NCBI GenBank assembly: GCA_021790425.1
Contig: JAJYEA010000002.1
Coordinates: forward strand, 36,807 to 100,806
Direction: 5' to 3'
DNA length: 64,000 nucleotides
Source of the DNA: Thermoplasmata archaeon
GTDB lineage: Archaea; Thermoplasmatota; Thermoplasmata; Lutacidiplasmatales; UBA184
Under the pieces are notes generated by a model that worked only from the letters and a program-made list of their open reading frames with translations, ran no database searches and was not told the DNA's origin. The position numbers and the translations under genes were made by a program. Below, in pieces: positions 5,419-59,918 of this stretch (position 1 is its first letter; every line of letters begins with the position of its first letter).

Positions 5419-6036
5419 ATGTCCGGGCATCCCCATGGCCACCACGGCGAACACGCGCACGCATGGACGCGGGATGCCGTCGCCTTTCTCGACACCGCGG
5501 ACCGGAAGAAGGACCAGGACCCGGACGTGCTCTGGGACATCGCCGGTCTCGCGGAGGGCCAGACGGTCGTGGACCTCGGGGCGGGCCCAGGGTTCTTCGC
5601 CTTTCCCGCGGCAGCGCGGATCGGCTCCCGGGGACGCGTCTACGCCGTGGATTCCTCGCCCGACATGATCGAGGTGCTCAAGGAGCGGAAGCAGGCGCGG
5701 GACGTCCCGAACCTGATCCCCGTGCTGAGCACCGCCGAGCGGATCCCGCTGGACGATGCGGTGGCGGACGTGGTACTCCTGGCGAACGTGCTCCACGACA
5801 TCCCCCGTCGGACGCTGCTCGAGGGAACCCGCGTCCTCCGGCCCGGCGGCACCCTCGTGAACGTGGACTGGCACAAGCGGGAGACCGATGGGGGACCGCC
5901 GCTCGCCATCCGCCTGACGCCCGATGAAGCGTCGGAGCACCTCCGTGCGGCCGGTCTCGTCGAGACCCGACGCACCGATTTCGGGAGCCACCACTACGTG
6001 CTCCTGATGCGGAAGGGGAGCAAGCAGACCCCATGA
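5419..6036 (+). CDS. Class I SAM-dependent methyltransferase (Methyltransf_11-like)
   Basis: VVDLGAGPGFF motif I, and LRPGGTLVNVDW. The alternative start at 5350 cannot be excluded. ATGA overlap with the downstream MBL gene. Confidence 0.65.
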   Translation: MSGHPHGHHGEHAHAWTRDAVAFLDTADRKKDQDPDVLWDIAGLAEGQTVVDLGAGPGFFAFPAAARIGSRGRVYAVDSSPDMIEVLKERKQARDVPNLIPVLSTAERIPLDDAVADVVLLANVLHDIPRRTLLEGTRVLRPGGTLVNVDWHKRETDGGPPLAIRLTPDEASEHLRAAGLVETRRTDFGSHHYVLLMRKGSKQTP

Positions 6037-9784: not shown

Positions 9785-10476
9785 GGCCCGCGGCGCTCCC
9801 GCGGTTCCCGGTCCTCCCACGACGACTCCCGCTCCATCGGCCGGCCGAAGGAGCGCGCGGGGCGTGCCGACCGGACGGGTCGGGCGTATGCCCGGCGCAC
9901 CTCGAGGGCCCGTTCCCCCTCTCCCTCCCGGTCGAGCGTCCGTCCTGCCAGGCGGATCGCGGTGATCACCACGTTCGAGCGGCCGATCCGGAGCTGGTCG
10001 CCGACCCGGATCGGGTGCTCCGGGTCCATGGTCACGAGGGCGGGGACGGTGACCGACCCCTGCCCGATGGAGACCTTCACGTGCGCGACGTCGCCGGGGA
10101 CGGCCCAGACCGTCCGGACCTCCTTCGCCAACGCCCACGGGGCGCTCGCGGACTTGGTCGTCTCGATCCGGGAGACGATGAGACGGCGCTCGGTCTCCTC
10201 GAGCCGGTCGCCGACCGCCAACCGACGGTCGGGGTCCATGGAGAGCTCGGTCGCCTGAGAGGCCCTTCCCTCGCTGACGACGACCCGGACCGTCAGGCGC
10301 CGGAGGCTCACCTCGAACGGGTGGGTGGTGTGGCATCGGGCGCAGCGCGCCACGCCGGCGGCGTGGGACCCCTCCCGGAACGCGCTCACATGGAGGACCC
10401 GGTGGGTCTCGGTGGTGCCGCACGTGGGGCAGGCCACCACGAGGGAGCGGATGACGGCGGGTGTGGGGGGCGTCAC
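9739..10476 (-). CDS. Zinc-ribbon protein of unknown function. Translationally coupled to top6A through a GTG start.
   Basis: GTG at 10476 overlaps the top6A TGA (GTGA). N-terminal CPTCG...(17)...CARCH zinc ribbon, followed by two beta-rich segments (VGDRL..., VGDQLRIGRSNVVITAIR). The first in-frame ATG would delete the zinc ribbon. Confidence 0.45.
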   Translation of the reverse strand: MTPPTPAVIRSLVVACPTCGTTETHRVLHVSAFREGSHAAGVARCARCHTTHPFEVSLRRLTVRVVVSEGRASQATELSMDPDRRLAVGDRLEETERRLIVSRIETTKSASAPWALAKEVRTVWAVPGDVAHVKVSIGQGSVTVPALVTMDPEHPIRVGDQLRIGRSNVVITAIRLAGRTLDREGEGERALEVRRAYARPVRSARPARSFGRPMERESSWEDREPRERRGPQMRRRSRPPPGNID

Positions 10477-11609
10477 AGGATGCCCATCTCGGTCAGCTTC
10501 TCCGGGAGGTACTTGTCCGTCACGTAATTGAGCCCGTACTTGGCGAGGGACTGTTGCTCGGCCTTCTTCCCGTGCTCGAGCATGAGCTGGATCTCGTTCT
10601 TCCAGAAGACGTCGTGGAAGCGGGGATCGGTGAGCTCCGCGTTGAGCGCCGCGATGTCCTTGTCGTTCAGCTTGTCGCTCGGGAGCTTGTAGTTCATGAT
10701 GTCCGAGGCGGTCACCCCGAGGAACTGCGCGGACGGGGTGGCGAGGTACGGCGACAGGTGCGCCGTCTTGATCGCCCCGTAGGCGACCGAGGCGTAGATG
10801 CGGAAGGACCAGGGGTCGCCGTCCGTGAAGACCACGACCGGGAGATGGAGCTCCTCGTTCAGCCGCTTGAGGAACCGCCGCGTGGACCGGGCCGGCTGGC
10901 CCTTCAGGTGCACGAGCAGGGCATCGTACTTCTCGTCGAACCCGTTCTCGCTCAGGCGGTCCATCATGCCACCGCACTCGATGGCCACGATGAACTTGGC
11001 CCCGGCGGAGCGGAGGGTGATCTTCTCCTTCTCCACGTTGTTGGGGAGCTGATAGCCGCCGTCCCCGACATCGTCCTTGCAATTGATCTTCATCTTGATC
11101 CCCTTGCGGTTGACTTCCTCGAGCGTGAGGTCCCCGATCACGGAAGCCCCGTTCTCCTCGGGGTGGAGACGGAAGTCCTCCCGCAGCTTCCCGCTCAGGA
11201 CCTCGAGGTCCTCCACGAGCAGGTTCGACTCGTCCTCGCTGCCGAACTTGGCCTCCTCCCACTGCTCGGAGATGTAGTAGAGCTCCCGGAGGGTCGACGT
11301 CTTCGTGTCCCGGGCCATCTCGCGGATGAAATCGACGATCCAGAACATCCGGAGGAGCATCATCGCGCCGTCCATCTTCCGCGCCGAGCGCACCCCGCTC
11401 TGCTGGCCGAGCATCCAGACCCCTTCGCGCAGGTTGAAGGCGATGTTCTGCTTCGTGCGGAGCGGGAGCCGCAGGCTGGGGATCTCCCCCGCCGTCAGCT
11501 CGTCGTAGACCTTCTCGGCCAGCGCGAGCGCCTCGCGGAGGGCCTCCTCCTCCTTGCCGGAGGGGGGTTCACTCTTCGTCTTGGACTCCTTGTTTCTTCT
11601 CGGCGGCAT
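10473..11609 (-). CDS. top6A: DNA topoisomerase VI subunit A (Spo11-like)
   Basis: Winged-helix plus Toprim domain; conserved ...FTDGDPWSFRIY..., ...AIECGGM.... Confidence 0.9.
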   Translation of the reverse strand: MPPRRNKESKTKSEPPSGKEEEALREALALAEKVYDELTAGEIPSLRLPLRTKQNIAFNLREGVWMLGQQSGVRSARKMDGAMMLLRMFWIVDFIREMARDTKTSTLRELYYISEQWEEAKFGSEDESNLLVEDLEVLSGKLREDFRLHPEENGASVIGDLTLEEVNRKGIKMKINCKDDVGDGGYQLPNNVEKEKITLRSAGAKFIVAIECGGMMDRLSENGFDEKYDALLVHLKGQPARSTRRFLKRLNEELHLPVVVFTDGDPWSFRIYASVAYGAIKTAHLSPYLATPSAQFLGVTASDIMNYKLPSDKLNDKDIAALNAELTDPRFHDVFWKNEIQLMLEHGKKAEQQSLAKYGLNYVTDKYLPEKLTEMGIL

Positions 11610-17100: not shown

Positions 17101-20100
17101 ATGCAACGCGGTTCGCGACTCGGGAGAACGTACTGGACACTGATTGCGACCGTGGGCCTGGCCCTGCTGATGGGGGTCCCGGGAAACGTCCTGGCGGGCT
17201 CGGGAACCGTTCCGGCCGGTTCACCGATCGGAGGGAGCCCGATGCTTCACGCTGCCTCTGAACACTCCCTCGGCGCGGCGCGGGACCCCTCCTCGCTCCT
17301 CCCGGCCCTGCGCCACCTCCCCGGCACGTTCCAACCGGCCTTCGATGCGCGGGTGTCGACCCCGTCGGTCAGCCCCACCATCGGGGTCAACTACGGCGCG
17401 GCTACCGAGGCGGGGGCACAGAACGAGCCCGGCATCGCGGTGAACCCGACCAATGCCCGGGATATCATCGTCTCGGGGAATGACTACAACACCGCAGCGA
17501 CCGGCGCGGGGGGCGGCTCGTGGGCCAGCGAGTTCACCAGCCTCGACGGGGGACAGACCTGGCAGTATCACCCGGCGGCGATGAACGCCACGTTCGCGGG
17601 CGGGAAACCCTGCTTTGGTGGCGACACGAACGTCTTCTTCGGTCCCGACGGCACGGCCTACTTCGCGGGACTGGGCTATCCGGATGCGCAGACGGGCAGG
17701 TGCAGCGGCACGTCCGGGCCCGCCACGAACGGCGGGCTCTTCGTGGCCCATTCGACGGATGGGGGGCAGACGTGGACGTTCGTCAAGGTGGAGCAGGATT
17801 TCGGTTCCAACTGGGTTGACAAGGAGTGGATGGGCATCAACCCGGCCAACGGGGAGATCTCCATCGACGTGATGAACTACAGCTCGACGGCATTCATCGA
17901 CTACTGGTACTCGACCGACAAGGGATCGACCTGGAACGGACCGATCGTCGTCAATCCGTCCTCGGACCAGAACATGGTGGCGGCCGGGCTCGCGGTGGAC
18001 TATCAGGGGGGCGTCGACATCGTCTGGCAGGGAGGGGCCACGCAAAACTACATCGAGTTCTCGCGGGCCACTGCCCCCGGGAGTGCCTTCTCTGCGGAGA
18101 CGAACCTCGGCTCGATCACCTGCGCCCCTGCCGGGAGCTCGGGCTTCCCCGCCATCGGGGGAGTCCAACGCATGAACTGTTTCCCCCAGATCTTCGCCGA
18201 TGACTCGCCCACGAGCCCTGACCACGGGAACCTCTACATCATCTACACGACAAATGCCACCTCCCTCCAGATCCAGCTCCTCCGGTCGACCAACTACGGG
18301 TCGACGTGGACCCCGCAGGGCTCTGCGATCGCCGTCAACAACGACCCTTCGGACGGGGCCGACCACTGGTGGCCGCAGGGCACCGTGGGAAAGAACGGCA
18401 CCGTCTACGTGGAGTTCCTGGACCGGCGCTACAACACCGGCAACCTCCTGGTCGATGCCACCATGGCCGTCTCCACGGATGGTGGGTTGACCTTCCCAAT
18501 CAACATCCGCCTGTCCTCGGTCAGCGGCAACCCGGACGTCTGGTCGGCGTTCATGGGCGACTACGAGAACACCTTCTGGAGCCCGAACGGGACCTTCGCG
18601 GTCTGGACCGACTTCCGGAACGGGGCCAGCGGAAGCACCAACGAGGACCTCTACGTGGGGCAGCTCATCTGGCTCAATCTCACGGCCAACGTGGCCGGGG
18701 TCACCGCGACGGTGGATGGGAGCTCGGCCTCTCTCCCCCAACGCGAGTTCTGGAACCACGGAACGGTCCACAACATCTCGGTCCCGGCCAGCGTGACGGT
18801 GGGACCCAACACCCTGGCGTTCCAGCACTGGGCGGGGGCGAGCGCCTCCTCGAACCCTTCGCTGTCGAACTTCCCGGCCAACGGGTCGGCGAACCTGGAG
18901 GCGGTCTATGCGGGCTCGGCTCCCCTGATCTCTTCCTTCACCGCCTCCCCCGCCTCCATTCCTTCCGGCGGAACCACCTACCTCAACGTCTCGGCCGCGG
19001 GAGGGCTCGGGCCGCTCACCTACGCCTACTCGGGCCAGCCGGGCGCTTGCCCCAGCGTGAACGCGAGCCATCTCGTCTGCTCAGCGACCGTCACGACGAC
19101 CACGACCTACACGGTCACGGTGAACGTCACGGACTCGGCGTCCCCCCCTCACTCCACCTCGGCGTTGACCTTGTTCACGGTCACCGTGCCGTCCCCGACC
19201 ATCGGCGCGTTCACGGCGGCCCCGGACCCGGTCCTCGTGAGCCACACCACGTATCTCAACGTCACGGCCTCCGGCGGCACGGGGCCGCTGGGATACGCAT
19301 ATGCGGGCCTGCCGACAGGTTGCAATTCGAGCAATCAGTCCAGCCTTCCGTGCGTCCCCTCGGTTCCCGGAACGTACTCGGTCACGGTTTTTGTGAACGA
19401 CAGCCACGGCGTCTCGGCGAACCGAGCGACGTCGGTCACGGTGGATCCGCTCCCATCGATCTCGGCGTTCACGATCTCTCCAGCCCAACTCTTCGTGGGG
19501 GGGACCACGTACCTGAACGTCTCCGCCTCGGGGGGACTGGGCAGTCTCTCGTATGCGTTCTCCGGGCTCCCTTCCGGATGCTTCTCCAGCAGTGCGGCCT
19601 CCCTCCCGTGTGTCCCCTCCGTGGCGGGCCAGTTCACAATCTCCGTCTTCGCGAACGACACGGCCGGAGACTCCGCATCGGCCAACGGGACCCTGTCGGT
19701 GCTGCTCCCGCTCCAGGTCACATTGAGCGCCGTCCCTTCCACCGTGGTGGTGAACCACCCCACCTCCATTTCCCCGGGCATATCGGGCGGGAGCGGCACG
19801 TATTCCTACGTCTACACGGGGCTCCCGGCGGGATGCTCGTCCAGCAACGTCACCCCGCTCCGGTGCGTGCCGACCAACTCGGGCACCTTCGGGGTCAGGG
19901 TCTTCGTGAATGACACGGCTCGGGAGTCCGTCTCGGCGAGCACGACCCTCACGGTCCTGCCGCCCCTGACCCTTTCCTCGTACTTGGCCGCTCCCGCCAC
20001 GGCGACCGTGGGAACCACCGTTGTCTATCTGAACGCGACCGCGAGCGGTGGCGAGGGGCTCCTCAGCTACGTGTACACGGGCCTCCCCTCCGGGTGCGCG

Positions 20101-20703
20101 TCCGCGAACGTTTCCTCCCTGACGTGCGTCCCGCAGCAATCGGGCACGTTCCTCACGAGCGTCTTCGTCAACGATTCTGTCGGAGACAGCGCGACCCTCA
20201 CGGCCGCCTTCACCGCCTACACTACCCCAGTGATCTCCTCCTTCACGGTCTCTCCCGTGCCGGTCGTTGTGAACCATACCGTCAACGTCACCGTGCTTGT
20301 TTCGGGGGGAGTAGCCCCGTACCTCTACACGTATGCCGGGCTCCCCTCCGGTTGCCTCTCCGAGAACCTGTCCGAGATCACCTGCAGTCCGTCCGTCGTG
20401 GGCAACTTCACGTTGACCGTCGCGGTGACGGACGCGAGGGGCCAGCCGGCCACCGCGTCGTCGCTCCTTCAGGTCGTCCCTAAGCCCAGCCAACCCTCAC
20501 CGGGTACCTCCGCCGGCCTCATAGGCGGCCTGGAACTGCTCGTCATTCTCCTGGTCGTGGGGGTCGTCGTCGTGGTCGCGGTCGTGCTCTCCCGACGCAG
20601 CAGGTCGAAACGCCGCCACCCACCCGTCCCCCAAACCCCACCGGGCTACCCCTACGCCCCTCCCCCCTCCTCCTGGGGACCCCCTCCTCCACCCGGCCGT
20701 TAG
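17101..20703 (+). CDS. Large secreted/surface protein: signal peptide, BNR(Asp-box) sialidase-like beta-propeller, six Ig-like repeats, C-terminal TM anchor, and a Pro-rich tail
   Basis: N-terminal signal peptide. Asp-boxes SLDGGQTW, STDGGQTW, STDKGSTW, STNYGSTW, STDGGLTF. Six ~87-aa repeats with YLNVSASGG.G.L.Y.Y.GLP.GC...C.P. C-terminal hydrophobic helix plus PVPQTPPGYPYAPPPSSWGPPPPPGR. Confidence 0.8.
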   Translation: MQRGSRLGRTYWTLIATVGLALLMGVPGNVLAGSGTVPAGSPIGGSPMLHAASEHSLGAARDPSSLLPALRHLPGTFQPAFDARVSTPSVSPTIGVNYGAATEAGAQNEPGIAVNPTNARDIIVSGNDYNTAATGAGGGSWASEFTSLDGGQTWQYHPAAMNATFAGGKPCFGGDTNVFFGPDGTAYFAGLGYPDAQTGRCSGTSGPATNGGLFVAHSTDGGQTWTFVKVEQDFGSNWVDKEWMGINPANGEISIDVMNYSSTAFIDYWYSTDKGSTWNGPIVVNPSSDQNMVAAGLAVDYQGGVDIVWQGGATQNYIEFSRATAPGSAFSAETNLGSITCAPAGSSGFPAIGGVQRMNCFPQIFADDSPTSPDHGNLYIIYTTNATSLQIQLLRSTNYGSTWTPQGSAIAVNNDPSDGADHWWPQGTVGKNGTVYVEFLDRRYNTGNLLVDATMAVSTDGGLTFPINIRLSSVSGNPDVWSAFMGDYENTFWSPNGTFAVWTDFRNGASGSTNEDLYVGQLIWLNLTANVAGVTATVDGSSASLPQREFWNHGTVHNISVPASVTVGPNTLAFQHWAGASASSNPSLSNFPANGSANLEAVYAGSAPLISSFTASPASIPSGGTTYLNVSAAGGLGPLTYAYSGQPGACPSVNASHLVCSATVTTTTTYTVTVNVTDSASPPHSTSALTLFTVTVPSPTIGAFTAAPDPVLVSHTTYLNVTASGGTGPLGYAYAGLPTGCNSSNQSSLPCVPSVPGTYSVTVFVNDSHGVSANRATSVTVDPLPSISAFTISPAQLFVGGTTYLNVSASGGLGSLSYAFSGLPSGCFSSSAASLPCVPSVAGQFTISVFANDTAGDSASANGTLSVLLPLQVTLSAVPSTVVVNHPTSISPGISGGSGTYSYVYTGLPAGCSSSNVTPLRCVPTNSGTFGVRVFVNDTARESVSASTTLTVLPPLTLSSYLAAPATATVGTTVVYLNATASGGEGLLSYVYTGLPSGCASANVSSLTCVPQQSGTFLTSVFVNDSVGDSATLTAAFTAYTTPVISSFTVSPVPVVVNHTVNVTVLVSGGVAPYLYTYAGLPSGCLSENLSEITCSPSVVGNFTLTVAVTDARGQPATASSLLQVVPKPSQPSPGTSAGLIGGLELLVILLVVGVVVVVAVVLSRRSRSKRRHPPVPQTPPGYPYAPPPSSWGPPPPPGR
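18913..20476 (+). repeat. Six tandem ~261-bp repeats encoding Ig-like domains within the 17101-20703 CDS
   Basis: Protein-level periodicity of the GLP.GC motif. Confidence 0.7.
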
Positions 20704-20939
20704 GAGGGGACGGACCTCTCCCGACCCTCCCTGAAGGGGCGTGCCGGCCCGCGGCAGGACCCCATCGGAGAACAGACCCGGGCCGCGGCCAGGACCTCCG
20801 TCCATCGCCGACGTTCCTCCGTGGGTTCGAGGAAGACGATGCCCCCAACCGACGGTACCGCAGAACGGGGGGGGCCGACGGCGCGCCCTGGCGTGACCTA
20901 CAAGCAAGCTGATACGCGGGTTCGGGCTCCTATCGATCG

Positions 20940-21980
20940 ATGGTCCCTCTTTCCATCAGCGACTCCGTCTTCCAAACCGCGCTCCGCCGCGCCCGGCGGG
21001 GAGAGGTGGACGACGAGACCGGCGGGGTCCTCCTGAGAGGGTCCCGCCGGGCCTCCCTGTGGCGCGAGCTGAGGGAGGCCGCTTCGACGGTGCGTGACCG
21101 GTCCTTGGGCCGGGAACTTCTGGTCACCGCGCATGTCCACATGATCGCCGAATGCAAACTACCCACCGCGTGCCAGTACTGCTCGCTCTCCAGTCGCTAC
21201 CGGTCCGTGTGCGCGGAGCGAGATCGGCTGACCGCCCGCGAGCTCGTGCGCGCGGTCCGGTACTCGGAGCAGAGGGGCGTCCAGTCCATCGTCTTGGTGG
21301 GAGGGTGCGATCCCGCGGGTTCCGACGCGGAAGTGCGCCGGGCCGTGGAGCGGGTGCGTCAGGTGAGCGATATCGACCTGGCGATCGACGTGGGGCCCTT
21401 CCTCTCCTCGAGCACCATCCGGTGGCTGAAGCGCCAGGGGGTGCCCACCGTCTACTGCTCGCTCGAGACCTCGAACCCTGCGGCATTCCGCGAGGCGAAG
21501 CCCGGGGACAGCCTGGAGGAGCGCATCGCGTGCATGGAGCGTGTCGAGAGGGAGGGCTCGAACCTCGGGAACGTGGTGATGAACGGTCTGGGGAACTCGG
21601 AGGACCTGTTGCGGTCGATCCTCGCCCTGCGACGATTCCGCCGCCTCTCCCACCTCTACCTCTCCACCTTCCAGCCGGTGCGCGGGACCCCATGGGCCGA
21701 CCGGCGTCCCGGCTCCATCGAAGTATCGCTCCGCGCGCTCGCCATCGCACGGCTCGCGCTCCCCGGGGTGCATCTCGGGCTCGCCGAGGTGGAAGTCGAG
21801 GACCCCGGCAGTGCGGCCCGTCTCTCCCGCCAGTTGAGGGCGGGAGCAGGGAACACGCTCGCCGGTGTGCTGGTCTACAAGCGCAAGACGGTCGACAATG
21901 TCGTGAGGATCCGAGACGAGGCAACGGCCATGGGGTTCCATCTCCCGCGGTCACGACCCGCGGCCCCCTCCCGCCGCTGA
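20940..21980 (+). CDS. Radical SAM protein, biotin-synthase-like fold, with a non-canonical CX5CX2C cluster motif (HcgA/HmdB-like spacing)
   Basis: ...HVHMIAECKLPTACQYCSLSS... = C-x5-C-x2-C. BioB-like N-terminal helical region, and a downstream GGCDP-type motif (VLVGGCDPAG). Confidence 0.6.
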   Translation: MVPLSISDSVFQTALRRARRGEVDDETGGVLLRGSRRASLWRELREAASTVRDRSLGRELLVTAHVHMIAECKLPTACQYCSLSSRYRSVCAERDRLTARELVRAVRYSEQRGVQSIVLVGGCDPAGSDAEVRRAVERVRQVSDIDLAIDVGPFLSSSTIRWLKRQGVPTVYCSLETSNPAAFREAKPGDSLEERIACMERVEREGSNLGNVVMNGLGNSEDLLRSILALRRFRRLSHLYLSTFQPVRGTPWADRRPGSIEVSLRALAIARLALPGVHLGLAEVEVEDPGSAARLSRQLRAGAGNTLAGVLVYKRKTVDNVVRIRDEATAMGFHLPRSRPAAPSRR

Positions 21981-22042
21981 CGGCGGGACCAGGGCCTTTC
22001 GCGCGGTCGCTTCTCTTCCGGTAGGCGCGCCAGGGTCCCGGG

Positions 22043-23626
22043 TCAGGCGGTCCGCACCCAGCGCACCAGGAGATCGACCACCTCGCGGAAGTACCGTGGG
22101 TCGATGCTCTCCTCGGCGTCGTGCATGTGGGCGTCCTCGTCCATCGACCCGAGGACGACCGCGGGCATGGGTCGGCCCGAGGGGGTCCGGATCTCGCGGA
22201 GCGAGCTCGCGTCGGTCCCGCCGTACTCGCCGTAGATGCCGATGGGGCGTCCCGCCACCTCCTGGAAGATGCCCTGGATCCGCGTGGCCTCGGGATCCTG
22301 CGGGGAGAGGAAATACCCCGAGCGGGCCCGCCCGGGGGGAACCACCGCCGATGCCCCGGCGACGTCCGTCTGGAGCGATCGGAAGTGTCCTTCGAAGATC
22401 CCGAATGCGTTCGCGGCCTCCATCTCCGGGGGAGATCTCAGGTCGAGGGTGAGCACCGCGTCTCGGAGCGGGTGGTCCTGCACGATCCCCTCCCGGACCG
22501 CCAACGTCAGCAGCCGGACGACCTCGGGGACGGGGTTCGAGGCGCGGTGGGGGTAGCCCCCGTGGCCCGACTTCCCGATCACGTTCACCGTCCACCCCTC
22601 CTTCGCCGGTGTGGGCTCGAGCCGGAACGGGGATGCCATGTGACCACGAAGGAACTTCTCGAGGTGCCCCAGGGATCCCGCTTCCCCCCGGAAGGTCAGG
22701 GTGACCGTGGCGGGGATCTGGTTCGCCGCCTCGGAGTTCGCGTGGACCCGGGTCAGGAGCGCCCCCTTCGGTGCCGCAGGACCGTCGCCCACGGCATCGA
22801 TCTTCGTCACCGTGGCTCGTCCCGTGATGAACTCGTGGGGGGCGGGGCCCGAGGGCTCGGGGGGCGAGCGCAGGGCCGAGGTCCAGGACTCGGCGACCGT
22901 GCGGAACTCGATGGTGCCCTGGGCGACCCGGAGGTATTGGGAGAGCGTGGACCGGGGAGGCACCGAGATCTCGGTGAAGGTGACCCCGCTCGAGCCGGCC
23001 GCCACGTAGGGCGAGCCGTCCGGGAGCACCGCCATCTCGCCGAGCAGGAGCCGCTCCGGGCTCCCCTCCGGGAGAGCGAGGTCGTGCTCCGCGACGGCTT
23101 CGATCCCGCCGGCTCCTCCCGTCTCCTCGTCACAGCACACGACCATCCGGACGTCGACCGGGAGATCCTTGACGGCGGCGAGCGCGCGGAGCGCGGCCAT
23201 GCCGGTCACGACCCCGCTACCGATGTCGTCGTTGGACCCGCGCCCGTAGAGGCGCCCGTCCTCCCGTTCGGTCAGCGTGTGCGGGGGGCTCTTCCACCGC
23301 CCGAGCTGCTCGTCGGGCACGGGAACCACATCATAGTGGGAGAGAATGAGCAGGCGCCGGGGCTTGCCCCGGTTGAGGTCGATGACCACATTTGGTCGGG
23401 GTTCCCCGAACCGGCTCGCGCCCCCGGGAAGCTCCTTGCGGGGGTCCCAGATCCGTGCCGCGAGACCGTGTCGCTTCGCCTCGTCCACCAGGAGCTCGCA
23501 CGCCTCCTGGTAGTGACGCTTCTCGACCCGCCCGTGCACGGGGTCCTCGAGGTTCGTGGTGTCGAGCCGGACCAGTCGCTCGAGCAGGTGTCGGGACTCC
23601 TCATCCATCCGGGGTAACGCGGTCAT
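22043..23626 (-). CDS. M20-family metallopeptidase (ArgE/DapE/CPG2-like dipeptidase/deacylase)
   Basis: LILSHYDVVP (His ligand), GRGSNDDIGSG (Asp), and the downstream E/H ligands typical of M20. Confidence 0.8.
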   Translation of the reverse strand: MTALPRMDEESRHLLERLVRLDTTNLEDPVHGRVEKRHYQEACELLVDEAKRHGLAARIWDPRKELPGGASRFGEPRPNVVIDLNRGKPRRLLILSHYDVVPVPDEQLGRWKSPPHTLTEREDGRLYGRGSNDDIGSGVVTGMAALRALAAVKDLPVDVRMVVCCDEETGGAGGIEAVAEHDLALPEGSPERLLLGEMAVLPDGSPYVAAGSSGVTFTEISVPPRSTLSQYLRVAQGTIEFRTVAESWTSALRSPPEPSGPAPHEFITGRATVTKIDAVGDGPAAPKGALLTRVHANSEAANQIPATVTLTFRGEAGSLGHLEKFLRGHMASPFRLEPTPAKEGWTVNVIGKSGHGGYPHRASNPVPEVVRLLTLAVREGIVQDHPLRDAVLTLDLRSPPEMEAANAFGIFEGHFRSLQTDVAGASAVVPPGRARSGYFLSPQDPEATRIQGIFQEVAGRPIGIYGEYGGTDASSLREIRTPSGRPMPAVVLGSMDEDAHMHDAEESIDPRYFREVVDLLVRWVRTA

Positions 23627-26172: not shown

Positions 26173-26691
26173 ATGGATCTTCCGCTCGCGTTCTATGTCG
26201 CGGGGCTCATCATCGTCCTCCTGCTCCTCTACTTCTTCTTCGGCTCCTTCCTCCACGGGGCCGGATACCAGCCGACGCCTCCGGACGTAGCGGACCGGAT
26301 GCTGGAGCTGGGTGCGGTGGCTCCCCGGGAACGGGTCTACGATCTGGGCGCCGGCACGGGGGCCCTCCTGTTCCTCTCGGCCGAAAAGGGGGCGAGCGTC
26401 GTCGGCTACGAGATCGAGCCGATCCGCTACCTGGTACTGCGCCTACGGCGTTGGAGGCACCCGCAGGGACGGTCCGTAACGCTCCGGCGGGGAAACTTCT
26501 TCGACGCGGACCTCCGCCCGGCCACCGTGGTGCTCACCTTCCTGTGGCCCGGTGCCATGGCCCGGTTGAAGGAGAAGTTCGAACGCGAGCTGGTCCCCGG
26601 CACCCGGGTCGTGAGCTACTGGCACCCGATCCCCGGGTGGACCCCCCAAGAGGTGGACCGGCGACTGCGGGTCTACCTTTACATCCGTTGA
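26173..26691 (+). CDS. Small membrane-anchored class I SAM-dependent methyltransferase
   Basis: N-terminal TM helix, then VYDLGAGTGALLF (motif I), and an acidic residue after beta2 (VVGYEIEP). Confidence 0.55.
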   Translation: MDLPLAFYVAGLIIVLLLLYFFFGSFLHGAGYQPTPPDVADRMLELGAVAPRERVYDLGAGTGALLFLSAEKGASVVGYEIEPIRYLVLRLRRWRHPQGRSVTLRRGNFFDADLRPATVVLTFLWPGAMARLKEKFERELVPGTRVVSYWHPIPGWTPQEVDRRLRVYLYIR

Positions 26692-27587
26692 ATCGAGAAC
26701 CGGGCCCCCGGATAGAGCCCGAGCACGTCGCGCGCACGGCCACGGTTGACCGCCACCTCGATCAGCCCGAAGCTCGACCCGACCACGCCGAGCACTCCCT
26801 GGGGGATGCTCTCGTAGTGGCGCGCCACCTCGGCCCGGTAGCTCTTGTCGTGGGCACGCACGACGACGAACGAACCGGTCCCGGCGACCCGGTTGTGGAA
26901 CTCCGAGGTGGGAAGGTTGGTGATGGCGTTCCCGAAGGGATCGACGTGAAGGACGATGACGTGGGCCAGTCCCGGCTCCACACTGGGCAAGGGTAGCTGG
27001 AAGGGCGAGTAGCTCGTCTCGGTCCCCAATTCGCTGACGGGGGTTCCCATGGCCAGGCGAGCGGCCGCGGGGGCGAACAGGTCCCGGCCCTCGAACGTCG
27101 GGCTCACACTCCCTCCGGGGGCGACCTTCTGCGGGTCGAGATGGTAGGTCTTCGGTTCTCCCAGATGCTCGGCCAGCGGCACCAGGAGCCCGTTGTCCGG
27201 CCCGAGCAGTGTGGTGCCGCCGCGGCAGGCGATCGCGATGGGGCGACGCTCGCCTCCGACACCGGGGTCGACGATCCCCACGTGGATCGTCCCGGGGGGA
27301 TACCACGCGGCGCATTGGCGTAGGAGGAACGCTCCCTCCAGGATCTGGTGGCTCGCGATCTCGTGGGTCATGTCCACGATGCGGGCCCGGGGGGCGTTGC
27401 GGAGAATGGCTCCCTTCATCTGGCTGGCATAGCTCCAGCCGACGTCCGTCGTGAGCGTGATGAGGGGTGGGTCCGGCTCGCGCACGGGGGGCGCCACCAA
27501 GAGCGCCACCGCTGGGGGAGGCGCACTAGGAACGGTCGCGGGGGCAGGTGTGGATCGGCTTGGAGGATGCGACTTCCTTACCGGCAC
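26679..27587 (-). CDS. SAM hydroxide adenosyltransferase / SAM hydrolase (DUF62, SalL-FlA family)
   Basis: ITLTTDVGWSYASQMKGAIL matches the DUF62 N-terminal motif, and the C-terminal barrel is present. The 41-aa Pro-rich N-terminal extension has an uncertain start (a GTG start is possible). Confidence 0.7.
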   Translation of the reverse strand: MPVRKSHPPSRSTPAPATVPSAPPPAVALLVAPPVREPDPPLITLTTDVGWSYASQMKGAILRNAPRARIVDMTHEIASHQILEGAFLLRQCAAWYPPGTIHVGIVDPGVGGERRPIAIACRGGTTLLGPDNGLLVPLAEHLGEPKTYHLDPQKVAPGGSVSPTFEGRDLFAPAAARLAMGTPVSELGTETSYSPFQLPLPSVEPGLAHVIVLHVDPFGNAITNLPTSEFHNRVAGTGSFVVVRAHDKSYRAEVARHYESIPQGVLGVVGSSFGLIEVAVNRGRARDVLGLYPGARFSIQRM

Positions 27588-57560: not shown

Positions 57561-58886
57561 TCAGCCCTCGAGCTGCGCGAGTGCGGCGTCCAGGACCGCG
57601 ATCCCGCGGTCGATCTCTTCCCGGGTGACGATCAGCGGGGGGGCGATGACGAGGTGGCTCACCCACCCCATCACGTAGATCCCGCGCTCGAGTGCGAAAC
57701 GGGTGATGTTGTCGATCGCGAGGGGTCGGCCCCGGAACTTGTCCTCCTCGGTGTTGAGCGGCTCGCGGGTGGTCCGGTCGCGGACGAGCTCGAGGGCCCA
57801 GAAGAGTCCCATCCCGCGGACCTCGCCCACGGAGGGATGCTTCGCTTGGAGGTCGCGGAGCTTCTGCCCAAGATACTCTCCCATCTCCCGGGACCTCTTC
57901 ATCAGATCCAGCCGCCGGTACTCGGCGACCGCGGCGGGGACGGCCGCCAGGCTCACGGGGTGGGCCTCGTAGGTGTGGCCGTGGGGGAAGTAGTGCTCCT
58001 CGAAGTGCTCCGCGATGGCCCGGCTGGTGGCCGTGATGCCCAGGGGGGTGTAGGCGGCGGTCGAGCCCTTGGCGGTGGTCAGTATGTCCGGCACGACGCC
58101 CCAGTGATTGGCGGCGAACCACTCCCCCGTGCGCCCCCAGCCCGTCATGACCTCGTCGAGGATCAGGAGCACGCCGTGCTTCGCGGTCACTTCGCGCAAC
58201 CGGGGCAGGTAGCCGTCGGGCGGCACGATCACGCCGTTGGTGCCGACGATGGGCTCGACGATCACCGCCGCGACGTCCGACTCGTGCGCGATCATGTACT
58301 CGATGTAGTCGGCGCAGGCGAGGTCGCAGGCGGGATAGGTCTGCTTGAGGGGACAGCGATAGCAATAGGCGTCAGGCGCGAAGATGACCCCCTCCGCCTT
58401 GCTGGAACCCTCGGCGGGCCAGCGCCGGAAATCCCCCGTGGCGGCGATCGAGCCCGCGGTGGACCCGTGGTAGCTCCGATACCGGGAGATGATCTTGCGC
58501 TTTCCCGTGTACGCCCGTGCAATCTTGAAGGCGGCCTCGTTCGCCTCCGTCCCCGAAGTGGAGTAGAAGAACTTGTCCAGCCCGGGTGGCATCACCCCGA
58601 GCAGGGCCCGTGTCGCCTCGGCCCGGACGGCCAGGGTGAACGACGGGTTCAGGTAGGGGAGGCGTCGGACCTGCTCTGCAACGGCGTCCGCCACCGCCCG
58701 GTTGCTGTGGCCGAGGTTGGAACAGACGAGCTGAGAGGAGAAATCGAGATAGTCTTTCCCCGCGGCATCGGTGAAGGTGCATCCCTCGGCCCGGACGATC
58801 TCGAGCGGGGTCCAGCCCTTCTGTTTGCGCCAGGTGCCGTAGGTGTTCTTGCGGGTGATCTCAACAGTGTCGTTTGCGGGGTTCAT
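57561..58886 (-). CDS. Class III (omega/acetylornithine-type) PLP-dependent aminotransferase
   Basis: ...GSTAGS..., DEVMTGWGRTGEWFA (PLP-Lys region ...TTAKG...), ...YSTSGTEANEAA.... The start ATG at 58886 overlaps the upstream small ORF stop (ATGA). Confidence 0.85.
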   Translation of the reverse strand: MNPANDTVEITRKNTYGTWRKQKGWTPLEIVRAEGCTFTDAAGKDYLDFSSQLVCSNLGHSNRAVADAVAEQVRRLPYLNPSFTLAVRAEATRALLGVMPPGLDKFFYSTSGTEANEAAFKIARAYTGKRKIISRYRSYHGSTAGSIAATGDFRRWPAEGSSKAEGVIFAPDAYCYRCPLKQTYPACDLACADYIEYMIAHESDVAAVIVEPIVGTNGVIVPPDGYLPRLREVTAKHGVLLILDEVMTGWGRTGEWFAANHWGVVPDILTTAKGSTAAYTPLGITATSRAIAEHFEEHYFPHGHTYEAHPVSLAAVPAAVAEYRRLDLMKRSREMGEYLGQKLRDLQAKHPSVGEVRGMGLFWALELVRDRTTREPLNTEEDKFRGRPLAIDNITRFALERGIYVMGWVSHLVIAPPLIVTREEIDRGIAVLDAALAQLEG

Positions 58887-59197
58887 GGCTGCCCGCGCCC
58901 GACACCTCCTTTGACTATGACCATTTCGAAGTGACCATCCTCGCGGACGTCCGAGTCGATGCGGTGTCCCCTGCGCTCCGCCCAGGCCCGGACATCGATA
59001 CGGCTGGGGACGTCCGCCACCCAGGCCCGGACACGAGACCCGTTCGGCATGGGCCCCAGGACGGTCTCGAGAACTGCCAAGACCCCCTTGCACTCCTTCT
59101 TCGTGCCGTCGATCAGGCGGAGGGGTGCTTCGCCCGCACCCTCGGCGGGCCCCGGTTCACGCAGCTTTGGCGGTTCCGCGGGCCTTCGAGAAGACAT
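58883..59197 (-). CDS. TusA-like (SirA/YedF fold) small protein with a variant Cys motif. Start uncertain.
   Basis: ...PLRLIDGTKKECKGVLAVLETVLGPMPNGSRVRAWVADVPSRIDVRAWAERRGHRIDSDVREDGHFEMVIVKGG closely parallels E. coli TusA (...LRCPEPV...[45 protein letters not shown]). The stop overlaps the aminotransferase ATG. A start at ATG 59197 would overlap the mfnB 3-prime end by 41 nt; the longer start at 59308 is also open. Confidence 0.4.
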   Translation of the reverse strand: MSSRRPAEPPKLREPGPAEGAGEAPLRLIDGTKKECKGVLAVLETVLGPMPNGSRVRAWVADVPSRIDVRAWAERRGHRIDSDVREDGHFEMVIVKGGVGRGQP

Positions 59198-59918
59198 CGA
59201 TCTCTCCGCTGAGGCGTTGCTCGAGGGCCTGCTTGATCCGCTCGACCGCGGGCGCTGCCACCTTGCCGCCGTACCGGTCCCCGTTGGTGCAGACCGCACC
59301 GCGGACACCGACGATATCCGGGTTGATGCGGGCCAGGGCGTCCATGTCGGACATCTTGAGATGGCCGGAGAGGGCGGTGCTCATGCCCGCCTCCTTGCCT
59401 TCCAGCACGAGGGACTTCAGGGTGGGCTCGTCGATGAAATCGAACAGGTTCCGTCCGTCCTTCGTGAGGGTGTCGATGAGGACGCCGTCGCTCTTGCTCT
59501 CCTTCCCGAGCTTGATCACGAGCTTCGGGTCGATGCCGCCGGGGAAGAGGACGCTGTCCGCGAACGTGGCCGCGATGAGCTTGGTCTGCGAGCCTTCGAG
59601 TGCCCGCCGGCTCTCCTTGAGGATGTCGAGCGCCATCCGGTAGTCCGACTGCACGAAGCCCACCTTGACGGAGGTCGCCTTCAGCATGGCGGCTCCGTAG
59701 ACGGCCATCGCCACGGTGCCCGGCTGGTTCGGAACGACACCCAGCGTCACGCTGACATGGATCTTCTTAGGGAATGCCTTGCGGACCTCACGAACGACCG
59801 GGGGAAAGTTCGACCCCACGAGCGCTTCCTGCAGGTTTTTGACATCGACAATGTCCGCACGCCCCTTGACGGCTTCTCGGGCCTCGGCCAGCTCCTGGAC
59901 GCTCACCATCAGCATCAT
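59157..59918 (-). CDS. mfnB: (5-formylfuran-3-yl)methyl phosphate synthase MfnB (DUF556; 4-HFC-P synthase of methanofuran biosynthesis)
   Basis: The catalytic residues known from MfnB align exactly: ADIVDVKNL (Asp25, Lys27), TSVKVGF (Schiff-base Lys85), and NPDIVGVRGAVC near the C-terminus. Confidence 0.8.
   Translation of the reverse strand: MMLMVSVQELAEAREAVKGRADIVDVKNLQEALVGSNFPPVVREVRKAFPKKIHVSVTLGVVPNQPGTVAMAVYGAAMLKATSVKVGFVQSDYRMALDILKESRRALEGSQTKLIAATFADSVLFPGGIDPKLVIKLGKESKSDGVLIDTLTKDGRNLFDFIDEPTLKSLVLEGKEAGMSTALSGHLKMSDMDALARINPDIVGVRGAVCTNGDRYGGKVAAPAVERIKQALEQRLSGEIDVFSKARGTAKAA

Follow-up and report, generated by a model that had tools for sequence, protein, structure and literature searches.

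A stand-alone radical SAM protein of uncultured Thermoplasmata, probably a distinct subfamily within the CX5CX2C clade of HcgA

The radical SAM gene and its conserved motifs

The analysed window is a stretch of 64,000 nucleotides from contig JAJYEA010000002.1 of a Thermoplasmata archaeon. On the plus strand, at 20940..21980, it carries a gene for a radical S-adenosylmethionine (SAM) protein with the cysteine spacing C-x5-C-x2-C (CX5CX2C) in place of the canonical CX3CX2C. According to the list of open reading frames (ORFs), the ORF is complete, starts with ATG and encodes 346 amino acids. Its GC content at third codon positions (GC3) is 0.86, as usual for coding sequence in this window of 65-72% GC. 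Sequence comparisons allow the protein to be regarded with good confidence as a functional single-cluster radical SAM enzyme. It would represent a distinct, nearly Thermoplasmata-only subfamily inside the CX5CX2C clade and serve neither in making the iron-guanylylpyridinol (FeGP) cofactor of [Fe]-hydrogenase nor in biotin synthesis. The features of the gene and protein are as follows.

20704..20939, plus strand: upstream intergenic region of 236 bp, presumed promoter region of the monocistronic gene; the sequence was read directly
21153..21182, plus strand: CX5CX2C motif C72-K-L-P-T-A-C78-Q-Y-C81, predicted to ligate the [4Fe-4S] cluster that binds SAM; conserved without exception in 107 of 107 full-length relatives
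21300..21311, plus strand: G121-G122-C123-D124, corresponding to the 'GGE' motif of SAM binding; GGTD in the family consensus
21456..21470, plus strand: C173-S-L-E176-T177, the sole other conserved cysteine and, after it, the invariant E-T pair from the motif of the ribose-binding strand
21576..21593, plus strand: V213-M-N-G-L-G218, a conserved strand motif rich in glycine that corresponds to GxIxGxxE; N215 is specific to the family
21777..21803, plus strand: G280-L-A-E-V-E-V-E-D288, a signature specific to the family, without equivalent in genuine HcgA and CX3CX2C proteins

Residues 71-81 read ECKLPTACQYC and place the motif at C72-x5-C78-x2-C81. A search across 5.8 billion proteins revealed homologs in 115 clusters with 52-65% identity, and a further copy with 99% identity on an ENA contig of 33.9 kb. 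All 107 full-length homologs have C-x5-C-x2-C at the same position; the remaining 8 of the 115 are N-terminally truncated fragments without the motif. The non-canonical spacing had been recognised in an earlier note on this DNA and is confirmed by its constancy. A sequencing error, considered there as an alternative, is therefore excluded, as no full-length relative departs from the spacing. In the tree alignment, the motif is a two-residue insertion relative to CX3CX2C proteins, usually with a conserved proline.

The family alignment of 83 sequences (A1) has 43 invariant columns, including G121/G122, E176, G216/G218, F244/P246/T250 and R271. The stretch with G121 and G122 aligns with SGED of HydE in HMMER, and G122 is common to the proteins with CX5CX2C and with CX3CX2C (hereafter CX5 and CX3 proteins). 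E176-T177 aligns with the 'hETaNP' stretch of HydE. In the glycine-rich strand, M214 and L217 are invariant in the family besides the two glycines; G216 is kept in all groups, and the other groups have isoleucine or valine at position 215. F244-x-P246-x3-T250 and R271 complete the conserved counterparts of SAM-binding motifs. The family signature comprises A-H65-x-H67-M, S82-L83-S84-S85 after C81, R94, D150, N215, G-L-A-E-V-E-V-E and Y313, and HcgA differs in these positions. Within G-L-A-E-V-E-V-E, L281, A282, E283, V284 and E287 are invariant in A1; both the HcgA and the CX3 groups have other residues there.

Only four cysteines are conserved in A1: the three of the motif and C173 (at least 90%). 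Of the 16 family sequences in the tree alignment, 11 have a cysteine at position 173, 4 a serine and one a leucine. The four HcgA-branch sequences have a cysteine and CX3 proteins a leucine or methionine. The ligands of a second (auxiliary) cluster, for which the earlier note had suggested a check, were not found, C173 being the only conserved cysteine outside the SAM-cluster motif. Since a single cysteine is conserved beyond the motif, the protein is predicted to be unable to ligate an auxiliary Fe-S cluster.

The only Pfam domain is Radical_SAM (PF04055), with 48.9 bits against a gathering cutoff of 29.5. An AlphaFold2 model built on A1 has a predicted local distance difference test score (pLDDT) of 94.2 and a predicted template modelling score (pTM) of 0.92. 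In Foldseek, it matches HydE, BioB, PylB, ThiH and HydG with template modelling (TM) scores of 0.70-0.80, including 0.79 for HydE and 0.80 for type II BioB. The biotin-synthase-like architecture proposed in the earlier note thus holds, with the fold of HydE, BioB and PylB matched at a TM score of ~0.8. The modelled fold is the full (beta/alpha)8 barrel of the HydE/BioB-type subgroup. Domain score, three-cysteine motif, barrel and counterparts of the SAM-binding motifs all place the protein in the radical SAM superfamily and the HydE/BioB/PylB/ThiH fold group. The closest solved structures by sequence are HydE (E = 1e-16), PylB and BioB; no HcgA structure was among these sequence matches.

One homolog deviates. 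In the Thermoplasmatales metagenome-assembled genome (MAG) DRTY-16 (L022, ~9977-10841), the middle cysteine is replaced by a tyrosine (CNLFPKYNYC) and the frame contains a stop; this copy is probably a pseudogene or an assembly error. Together with the stand-alone position of the gene and its variable contexts, it would agree with a gene in decay or without function, left over from an HcgA-like ancestor. Such decay is very unlikely for the family: the reading frame is undisrupted both in the window and in over 100 relatives, the invariant columns include the cluster and SAM-binding motifs, GC3 is typical of coding sequence, and the structure model is confident.

Relation to curated families and phylogeny

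HcgA (HmdB) is the only characterised CX5CX2C enzyme in the HydE/BioB fold group (PMC10100467). It carries a [4Fe-4S] cluster, converts SAM to 5'-deoxyadenosine and yields a hydroxypyridinol, an iron ligand, from a small molecule that was unidentified in the 2022 study (PMC10100467). A paper on HcgA-like proteins outside the FeGP pathway was not found in the literature.

In NCBIfam, the window protein scores 103.2 bits with HmdB (TIGR03957), 72.5 with BioB (TIGR00433), 66.2 with HydE (TIGR03956) and 63.1 with PylB (TIGR03910). All scores are far below the equivalog cutoffs of 320.9, 225, 254.6 and 348.2 bits, respectively, and an identity as PylB was rejected on this basis. The identity with genuine HcgA is 24% over 334 amino acids (93 bits, tblastn).

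Many relatives are labelled 'biotin synthase' by the JGI. A divergent biotin synthase, or another sulfur-inserting enzyme such as LipS1/LipS2, would be in line with this label, with the TM scores of 0.70-0.80 to the BioB fold and with the E value of the BioB hidden Markov model (HMM; 3e-20). It is nevertheless most improbable. The BioB score stays far from its cutoff, LipS1 and LipS2 give 37 and 30 bits, and the protein lacks ligands for a sulfur-donating [2Fe-2S] or [4Fe-5S] cluster. The contexts examined contain no bio genes, and the tree described below groups the protein with CX5 and not with CX3 BioB-type proteins at 100% bootstrap.

An exhaustive search with the A1 profile over 1.84 billion representative proteins yielded 1005 matches at E<=1e-3, with 43 at E<=1e-30. 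Above 108.1 bits, all full-length matches with an intact motif have CX5CX2C, usually as C-x3-P-x-C-x-Y-C; the first canonical CX3CX2C protein appears at 108.1 bits. The best 150 of the 1005 matches comprise 54 CX5 proteins, 77 CX3 proteins and 19 fragments or degenerate sequences. Genuine HcgA (P0162) reaches 116 bits with the family profile and ranks ~47th, behind ~40 other CX5 representative clusters. Among 31 CX5 proteins scanned with NCBIfam (30 representatives and the window protein), HmdB is the best match in every case, and P0162 alone passes the HmdB cutoff, with 559.6 bits; the others score 75-286 bits. The earlier note had taken the spacing as a hallmark of HcgA. This view does not stand, with the motif in 54 of the best 150 representative clusters and 30 of the 31 scanned proteins below the cutoff.

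A neighbour-joining (NJ) tree was calculated from 76 sequences and 324 columns with 100 bootstraps. Gap positions were ignored pairwise, so the two-residue insertion itself does not drive the separation of the two groups. CX5 proteins split from CX3 proteins of the HydE/BioB type with 100% bootstrap. The window family forms a 94% clade with P0105, P0116, P0117, P0120 and two low-GC Thermoplasmatales homologs. Genuine HcgA (P0162, P0176) groups with P0132/P0278 on a branch apart from the window family. Sequence data thus indicate that CX5CX2C defines a whole monophyletic clade with HcgA as one branch, and by motif and monophyly the window protein appears as a member of this HcgA-like clade. The clade may correspond to Megacluster-4-10 of RadicalSAM.org (PMC9477430).

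The earlier designation as HcgA/HmdB-like is right as resemblance and wrong as membership. HmdB is the nearest curated family, and the protein falls in the CX5 clade that includes HcgA and outside BioB in a phylogeny of the kind that the note had suggested. It is no HcgA ortholog, given the score, the ~24% identity and the separate 94% clade of its family.

One protein of the HcgA branch carries the name 'HmdB' at NCBI. The gene of P0278 (L023, 10001-11035) is placed amid genes of ABC importers and has neither hcg nor hmd genes within 10 kb of it, and its representative P0132 scores 286 bits, below 320.9. The name is probably an over-annotation.

Host organism

Sixteen GTDB species genomes contain the family, as found by a genome scan with the pattern GLAEV[EG]VE[DN]. 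All are MAGs of uncultured archaea; 14 are labelled Thermoplasmata or Thermoplasmatales, including UBA184, and two Nitrososphaerales. The latter, SPRUCE peat MAGs (L007, L009) labelled by the submitter, have family members with 58-59% identity, a case of either mislabelling or lateral transfer. The subfamily is thus hosted almost only by uncultured, mostly high-GC Thermoplasmata, and the gene always stands alone.

The housekeeping genes of the window are archaeal: topoisomerase VI A/B, exosome Rrp4/41/42, L37ae, a threonyl-tRNA synthetase with an archaeal editing domain, NFACT and an ADP-forming acyl-CoA synthetase. The GC content is ~68%. Lutacidiplasmatales/TMEG are soil organoheterotrophs with an aerobic or facultatively anaerobic life and ~69% GC (PMC9287336). 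Both the GC content and the relatives agree with this group, and the host looks like an aerobic soil Thermoplasmata of the Lutacidiplasmatales type. Methanogenesis genes were not found in the window, and tblastn with McrB was empty (E<0.01), in agreement with the earlier description of the context.

A second gene had been named mfnB in the earlier note, 38 kb away from the radical SAM gene. The locus 59157-59918 (minus strand) indeed encodes a homolog of the MfnB family ((5-formylfuran-3-yl)methyl phosphate synthase), with 210 bits below the equivalog cutoff of 341, and the name is thus confirmed in part only. A class-III aminotransferase gene (57561-59093, minus strand) lies directly beside it on the same strand. 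By their annotation, both could form a furan-amine (methanofuran-like) module in a non-methanogen. The reading of two methanogen cofactor signatures in the earlier note is weak and not supported here: the host looks like an aerobic soil type, the radical SAM protein is not an HcgA ortholog and the MfnB homolog lies below its cutoff.

Gene context of the window family

The upstream gene ends at 20703 and leaves the 236-bp gap before the radical SAM ORF. Downstream, after a 62-bp spacer, a convergent gene on the minus strand (22043-23626) encodes an M20-family peptidase. Both findings bear out the description as a monocistronic gene. Rfam had no match in 20300-22300 at E<=1. A sigma-70 scan of the upstream region found no site; the test is uninformative here, because a sigma-70-like site is not expected in an archaeon.

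The stand-alone character extends to the family. An all-against-all BLASTP of the flanking ORFs of 21 family loci detected no conserved neighbour. Synteny was limited to the subclade level, and the rest of the apparent clusters consisted of shadow ORFs from GC-rich sequence. Pfam annotation of tightly spaced same-strand neighbours had no common theme and included hemerythrin, agmatine deiminase, Dph6-like, GvpD/KaiC, MFS, GDSL, GNAT, SCP2 and Fe-ADH proteins. Rfam found nothing in 7 family loci. Genes for Peripla_BP_2, FecCD, DUF364, MoeA and methyltransferases were absent within 8-10 kb in all 15 family loci inspected, including the window.

A genuine hcgA locus served as positive control. 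The gene of P0162 (L027) is located in an operon hcgA-hcgB-hcgC-NIF3(hcgD)-hcgE-hcgF-hmd, with hcgG (Fibrillarin_2) and mcrB/mcrD adjacent. Proteins of this locus were used as tblastn queries against 511 kb, comprising the window, 21 other family loci and 4 outgroup loci. HcgB, C, D, E, F, G, Hmd and McrB had no match at E<0.01 in this DNA; only HcgA matched. The absence of hcgB-G and hmd near the gene, stated in the earlier note, was thus confirmed for the window.

These contexts bear on the idea that the protein is a genuine ortholog of HcgA and forms the pyridinol from which the FeGP cofactor would be built, with the Hmd in need of it encoded in another part of the genome. The shared CX5CX2C motif, the best curated match to HmdB and the position of HcgA as sole characterised enzyme with this motif in the fold group (PMC10100467) speak for it. 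The idea can hardly hold: the score of 103 instead of 320.9 bits, the low identity and the separate clade are joined by ~40 CX5 representative clusters that outscore genuine HcgA on the family profile and by many differing barrel positions. Genuine hcgA is operonic with hcgB-F and hmd, of which none occurs in the window and 21 other family loci, and the hosts are non-methanogenic, largely aerobic soil Thermoplasmata.

Some neighbours are of interest in their own right. In one subclade, a hemerythrin-domain protein is encoded 3' of the radical SAM gene, in the same orientation (L010, 2510-3205; L014, 11101-11979; homologs in L013 and L016). It could be a link to oxygen or iron sensing and is not conserved across the family. 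Directly upstream of the window gene, 17101-20703 (plus strand) encodes a 1200-amino-acid surface protein with a signal peptide. Its N-terminal region is BNR/sialidase-like, judged from sequence alone. Further features are about six repeats of ~90 amino acids, of which one weakly matches PKD, a transmembrane helix at the C-terminus and a tail rich in proline. A comparable giant Ig-repeat protein lies 3' of the homolog in L004, probably by coincidence. In the window, the protein encoded at 26679-27587 (minus strand), ~5 kb downstream of the radical SAM ORF, is homologous to the SAM hydroxide adenosyltransferase / (R)-SAM hydrolase family (152.8 bits, cutoff 470). The arrangement is repeated on the near-identical ENA contig L001.

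An importer-linked sister radiation

Six outgroup contexts were inspected one by one. All are importer clusters: five have Peripla_BP_2, and L026 is of the energy-coupling factor (ECF) type.

L023: Peripla_BP_2/FecCD/ABC and Nik/Opp-type genes
L024, 5229-11050, plus strand: tandem array of five CX5CX2C radical SAM genes, from a MAG labelled 'Halobacteriota archaeon'
L024, flanks: Peripla_BP_2 and a methyltransferase before the radical SAM genes, FecCD/ABC and a CobN-like chelatase after them
L025, Syntrophaceticus schinkii MAG: three Peripla_BP_2, MoeA, methyltransferase, CobW and ABC ATPase
L026, 1042-4709, plus strand: P0120, the nearest outgroup of the window family; its operon adjoins a narGHI-type molybdoenzyme operon
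L026, operon: a 190-amino-acid ECF S-component-like protein with ~6 transmembrane helices (no Pfam match), the radical SAM gene, an ECF-type ATPase in duplicate and CbiQ/EcfT
L029: Peripla_BP_2 immediately upstream
L030: TonB/ExbBD, two Peripla_BP_2/FecCD/ABC sets, DUF364, FmdE, methyltransferase and MoeA

An independent metagenome sample supported the association. Of 12 CX5 sister loci, 9 have Peripla_BP_2 at a distance of up to 8 kb, versus 0 of 16 CX3 control loci in the same scan and 0 of 15 Thermoplasmata-family loci (Fisher p = 3e-5 and 5e-5); the 12 sister loci include near-duplicates and amount to ~6 independent contexts. Outside HcgA and the window family, importer-associated CX5 loci are L023, L024, L025, L029, L030, L031 and L033-L040. 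Frequent additional genes encode a SAM methyltransferase, DUF364, MoeA, CobW, CobN or TonB-ExbBD. The importer-linked genes look like parts of an undescribed metal- or cofactor-related pathway.

In L025, a full-length riboswitch for the molybdenum or tungsten cofactor (Moco/Wco, RF01055) is located at 5671-5807 (plus strand), with 75.2 bits against a gathering score of 36. The gene string 3' of it reads Peripla_BP_2-MoeA-...-CX5CX2C radical SAM-Peripla_BP_2-methyltransferase-CobW-ABC. The riboswitch suggests a regulation of this HcgA-like enzyme by the molybdenum or tungsten cofactor. In the sister loci besides L025, Rfam detected no regulatory RNA, also not with the threshold relaxed to E<=0.5. 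As HcgA operons, importer-linked loci and stand-alone genes were all observed, the clade holds three contextual types: HcgA in hcg-hmd operons, the importer-linked radiation, where signs point to traffic in Mo/W or other metals, and the stand-alone Thermoplasmata family.

The sister contexts raise the possibility that the window enzyme makes or remodels a metal-binding small molecule or a part of a cofactor, for example of molybdenum/tungsten or iron, with partner genes dispersed in Thermoplasmata. The enrichment of Peripla_BP_2 over the CX3 controls, the five of six outgroup contexts with this protein, the ECF-type importer beside narGHI in L026, the riboswitch with MoeA in L025 and MoeA with FmdE in L030 all point this way. 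The product of HcgA itself is an iron-ligating hydroxypyridinol (PMC10100467). For the window family this explanation is unlikely. Peripla_BP_2, FecCD, DUF364, MoeA or methyltransferase genes are missing from all 15 of its own loci inspected, Rfam found no riboswitch around the window gene or in 7 family loci, its signature residues are unlike those of the sister branches, and the inference derives wholly from relatives with ~25-35% identity. One lead was followed and rejected: the small membrane protein upstream of P0120, a candidate ECF S-component, has no counterpart beside family members.

Proposed reaction of the window enzyme

The distinct single-cluster enzyme remains the preferred assignment, and a mechanism can be proposed from established radical SAM chemistry and HcgA biochemistry (PMC10100467). 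C72, C78 and C81 would hold the [4Fe-4S] cluster, whose fourth iron would bind SAM. Reduction at this one [4Fe-4S]-SAM site would split SAM and generate a 5'-deoxyadenosyl radical. The radical may then attack a polar small molecule bound as substrate within the (beta/alpha)8 barrel and remove a hydrogen atom from it; the barrel presents family-specific His, Arg, Asp, Asn, Glu and Tyr residues. C173 is possibly a hydrogen-atom relay. Because no auxiliary cluster is available to donate sulfur, a rearrangement or ring formation would be the outcome and not a sulfur insertion. The conservation pattern suggests an enzyme that is likely active, on a polar small molecule.

A metal ligand or cofactor-type heterocycle is the leading guess for the product, by analogy with HcgA and the importer-linked radiation and with rather low confidence. 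A wider proposal is a little more doubtful still: aerobic, non-methanogenic soil Thermoplasmata might use the enzyme for a pyridinol- or pyridone-type heterocycle as metal ligand or core of a new cofactor, and the whole clade might consist of 'metal-ligand heterocycle synthases'.

Several observations weigh against the assignment as a separate functional subfamily. The absence of hcg and hmd genes covers the loci searched, and such genes may be encoded elsewhere in the host genome. Gene context, riboswitches and fusions indicate no pathway for the window family, and the link to metal ligands and cofactors derives by analogy from the sister branches and not from the family itself. The margin in the family profile is small, with 116 bits for genuine HcgA versus 108 bits for the best CX3 protein. 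The tree is based on distances (NJ) and not on maximum likelihood, and the deep branching within the CX5 clade is poorly resolved.

Significance

The CX5CX2C motif is often treated as unique to HcgA. It defines a much larger, mostly uncharacterised clade, and automatic labels such as 'biotin synthase' or 'HmdB' are therefore unreliable. The window gene belongs to a well-conserved stand-alone branch of this clade in abundant but uncultured soil archaea. Identification of its substrate could reveal new radical chemistry and could inform on HcgA. If the clade does consist of heterocycle synthases, FeGP biosynthesis would be only one specialised offshoot of it. The practical importance is moderate, because no pathway context indicates the function.

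Comparison with known systems

HydE, the maturase of [FeFe]-hydrogenase (PDB 3ciw, 3iiz, 5fep), is the best solved-structure match and shares the full (beta/alpha)8 barrel and aligning SAM-binding motifs. It differs by a canonical CX3CX2C motif and a C-terminal CX7CX2C auxiliary site, the latter missing in the window protein. An identity as HydE was rejected with 66.2 versus 254.6 bits and the separation from CX3 proteins at 100% bootstrap; hydA, hydF or hydG were not present in the gene contexts examined. BioB of types I and II (PDB 1r30, 8vcw, 8vdw) has the fold in common with the window protein (TM 0.70-0.80) and provides the automatic label of many relatives. It differs by the canonical cluster motif and the sulfur-donating auxiliary cluster, bound by three Cys and an Arg in type I and by Cys in type II, for which the window protein has no ligands, and by score (72 versus 225 bits).

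The importer-linked CX5CX2C proteins, such as WP_052835336.1 of Syntrophaceticus schinkii, are the sister radiation closest to the window family in the tree. Like that family, they are uncharacterised, and many of them bear the automatic label 'biotin synthase'. Their genes lie in Peripla_BP_2/FecCD/ABC or ECF clusters, unlike those of the window family (0 of 15 loci).

HcgA differs from the window protein by the score (103 versus 320.9 bits), by an identity of ~24% and by its position outside the 94% clade. It has other residues at the barrel positions H65/H67, S82-L83-S84-S85, R94, D150, N215 and GLAEVEVE. The window-family gene never lies beside hcgB-G or hmd, and the host of the window gene is a non-methanogenic Thermoplasmata. 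HcgA has in common with the window protein the CX5CX2C motif with the same two-residue insertion, the HydE/BioB-type fold group, the same 100% clade and the best curated HMM match, as well as a cysteine at position 173 and no sign of an auxiliary cluster.

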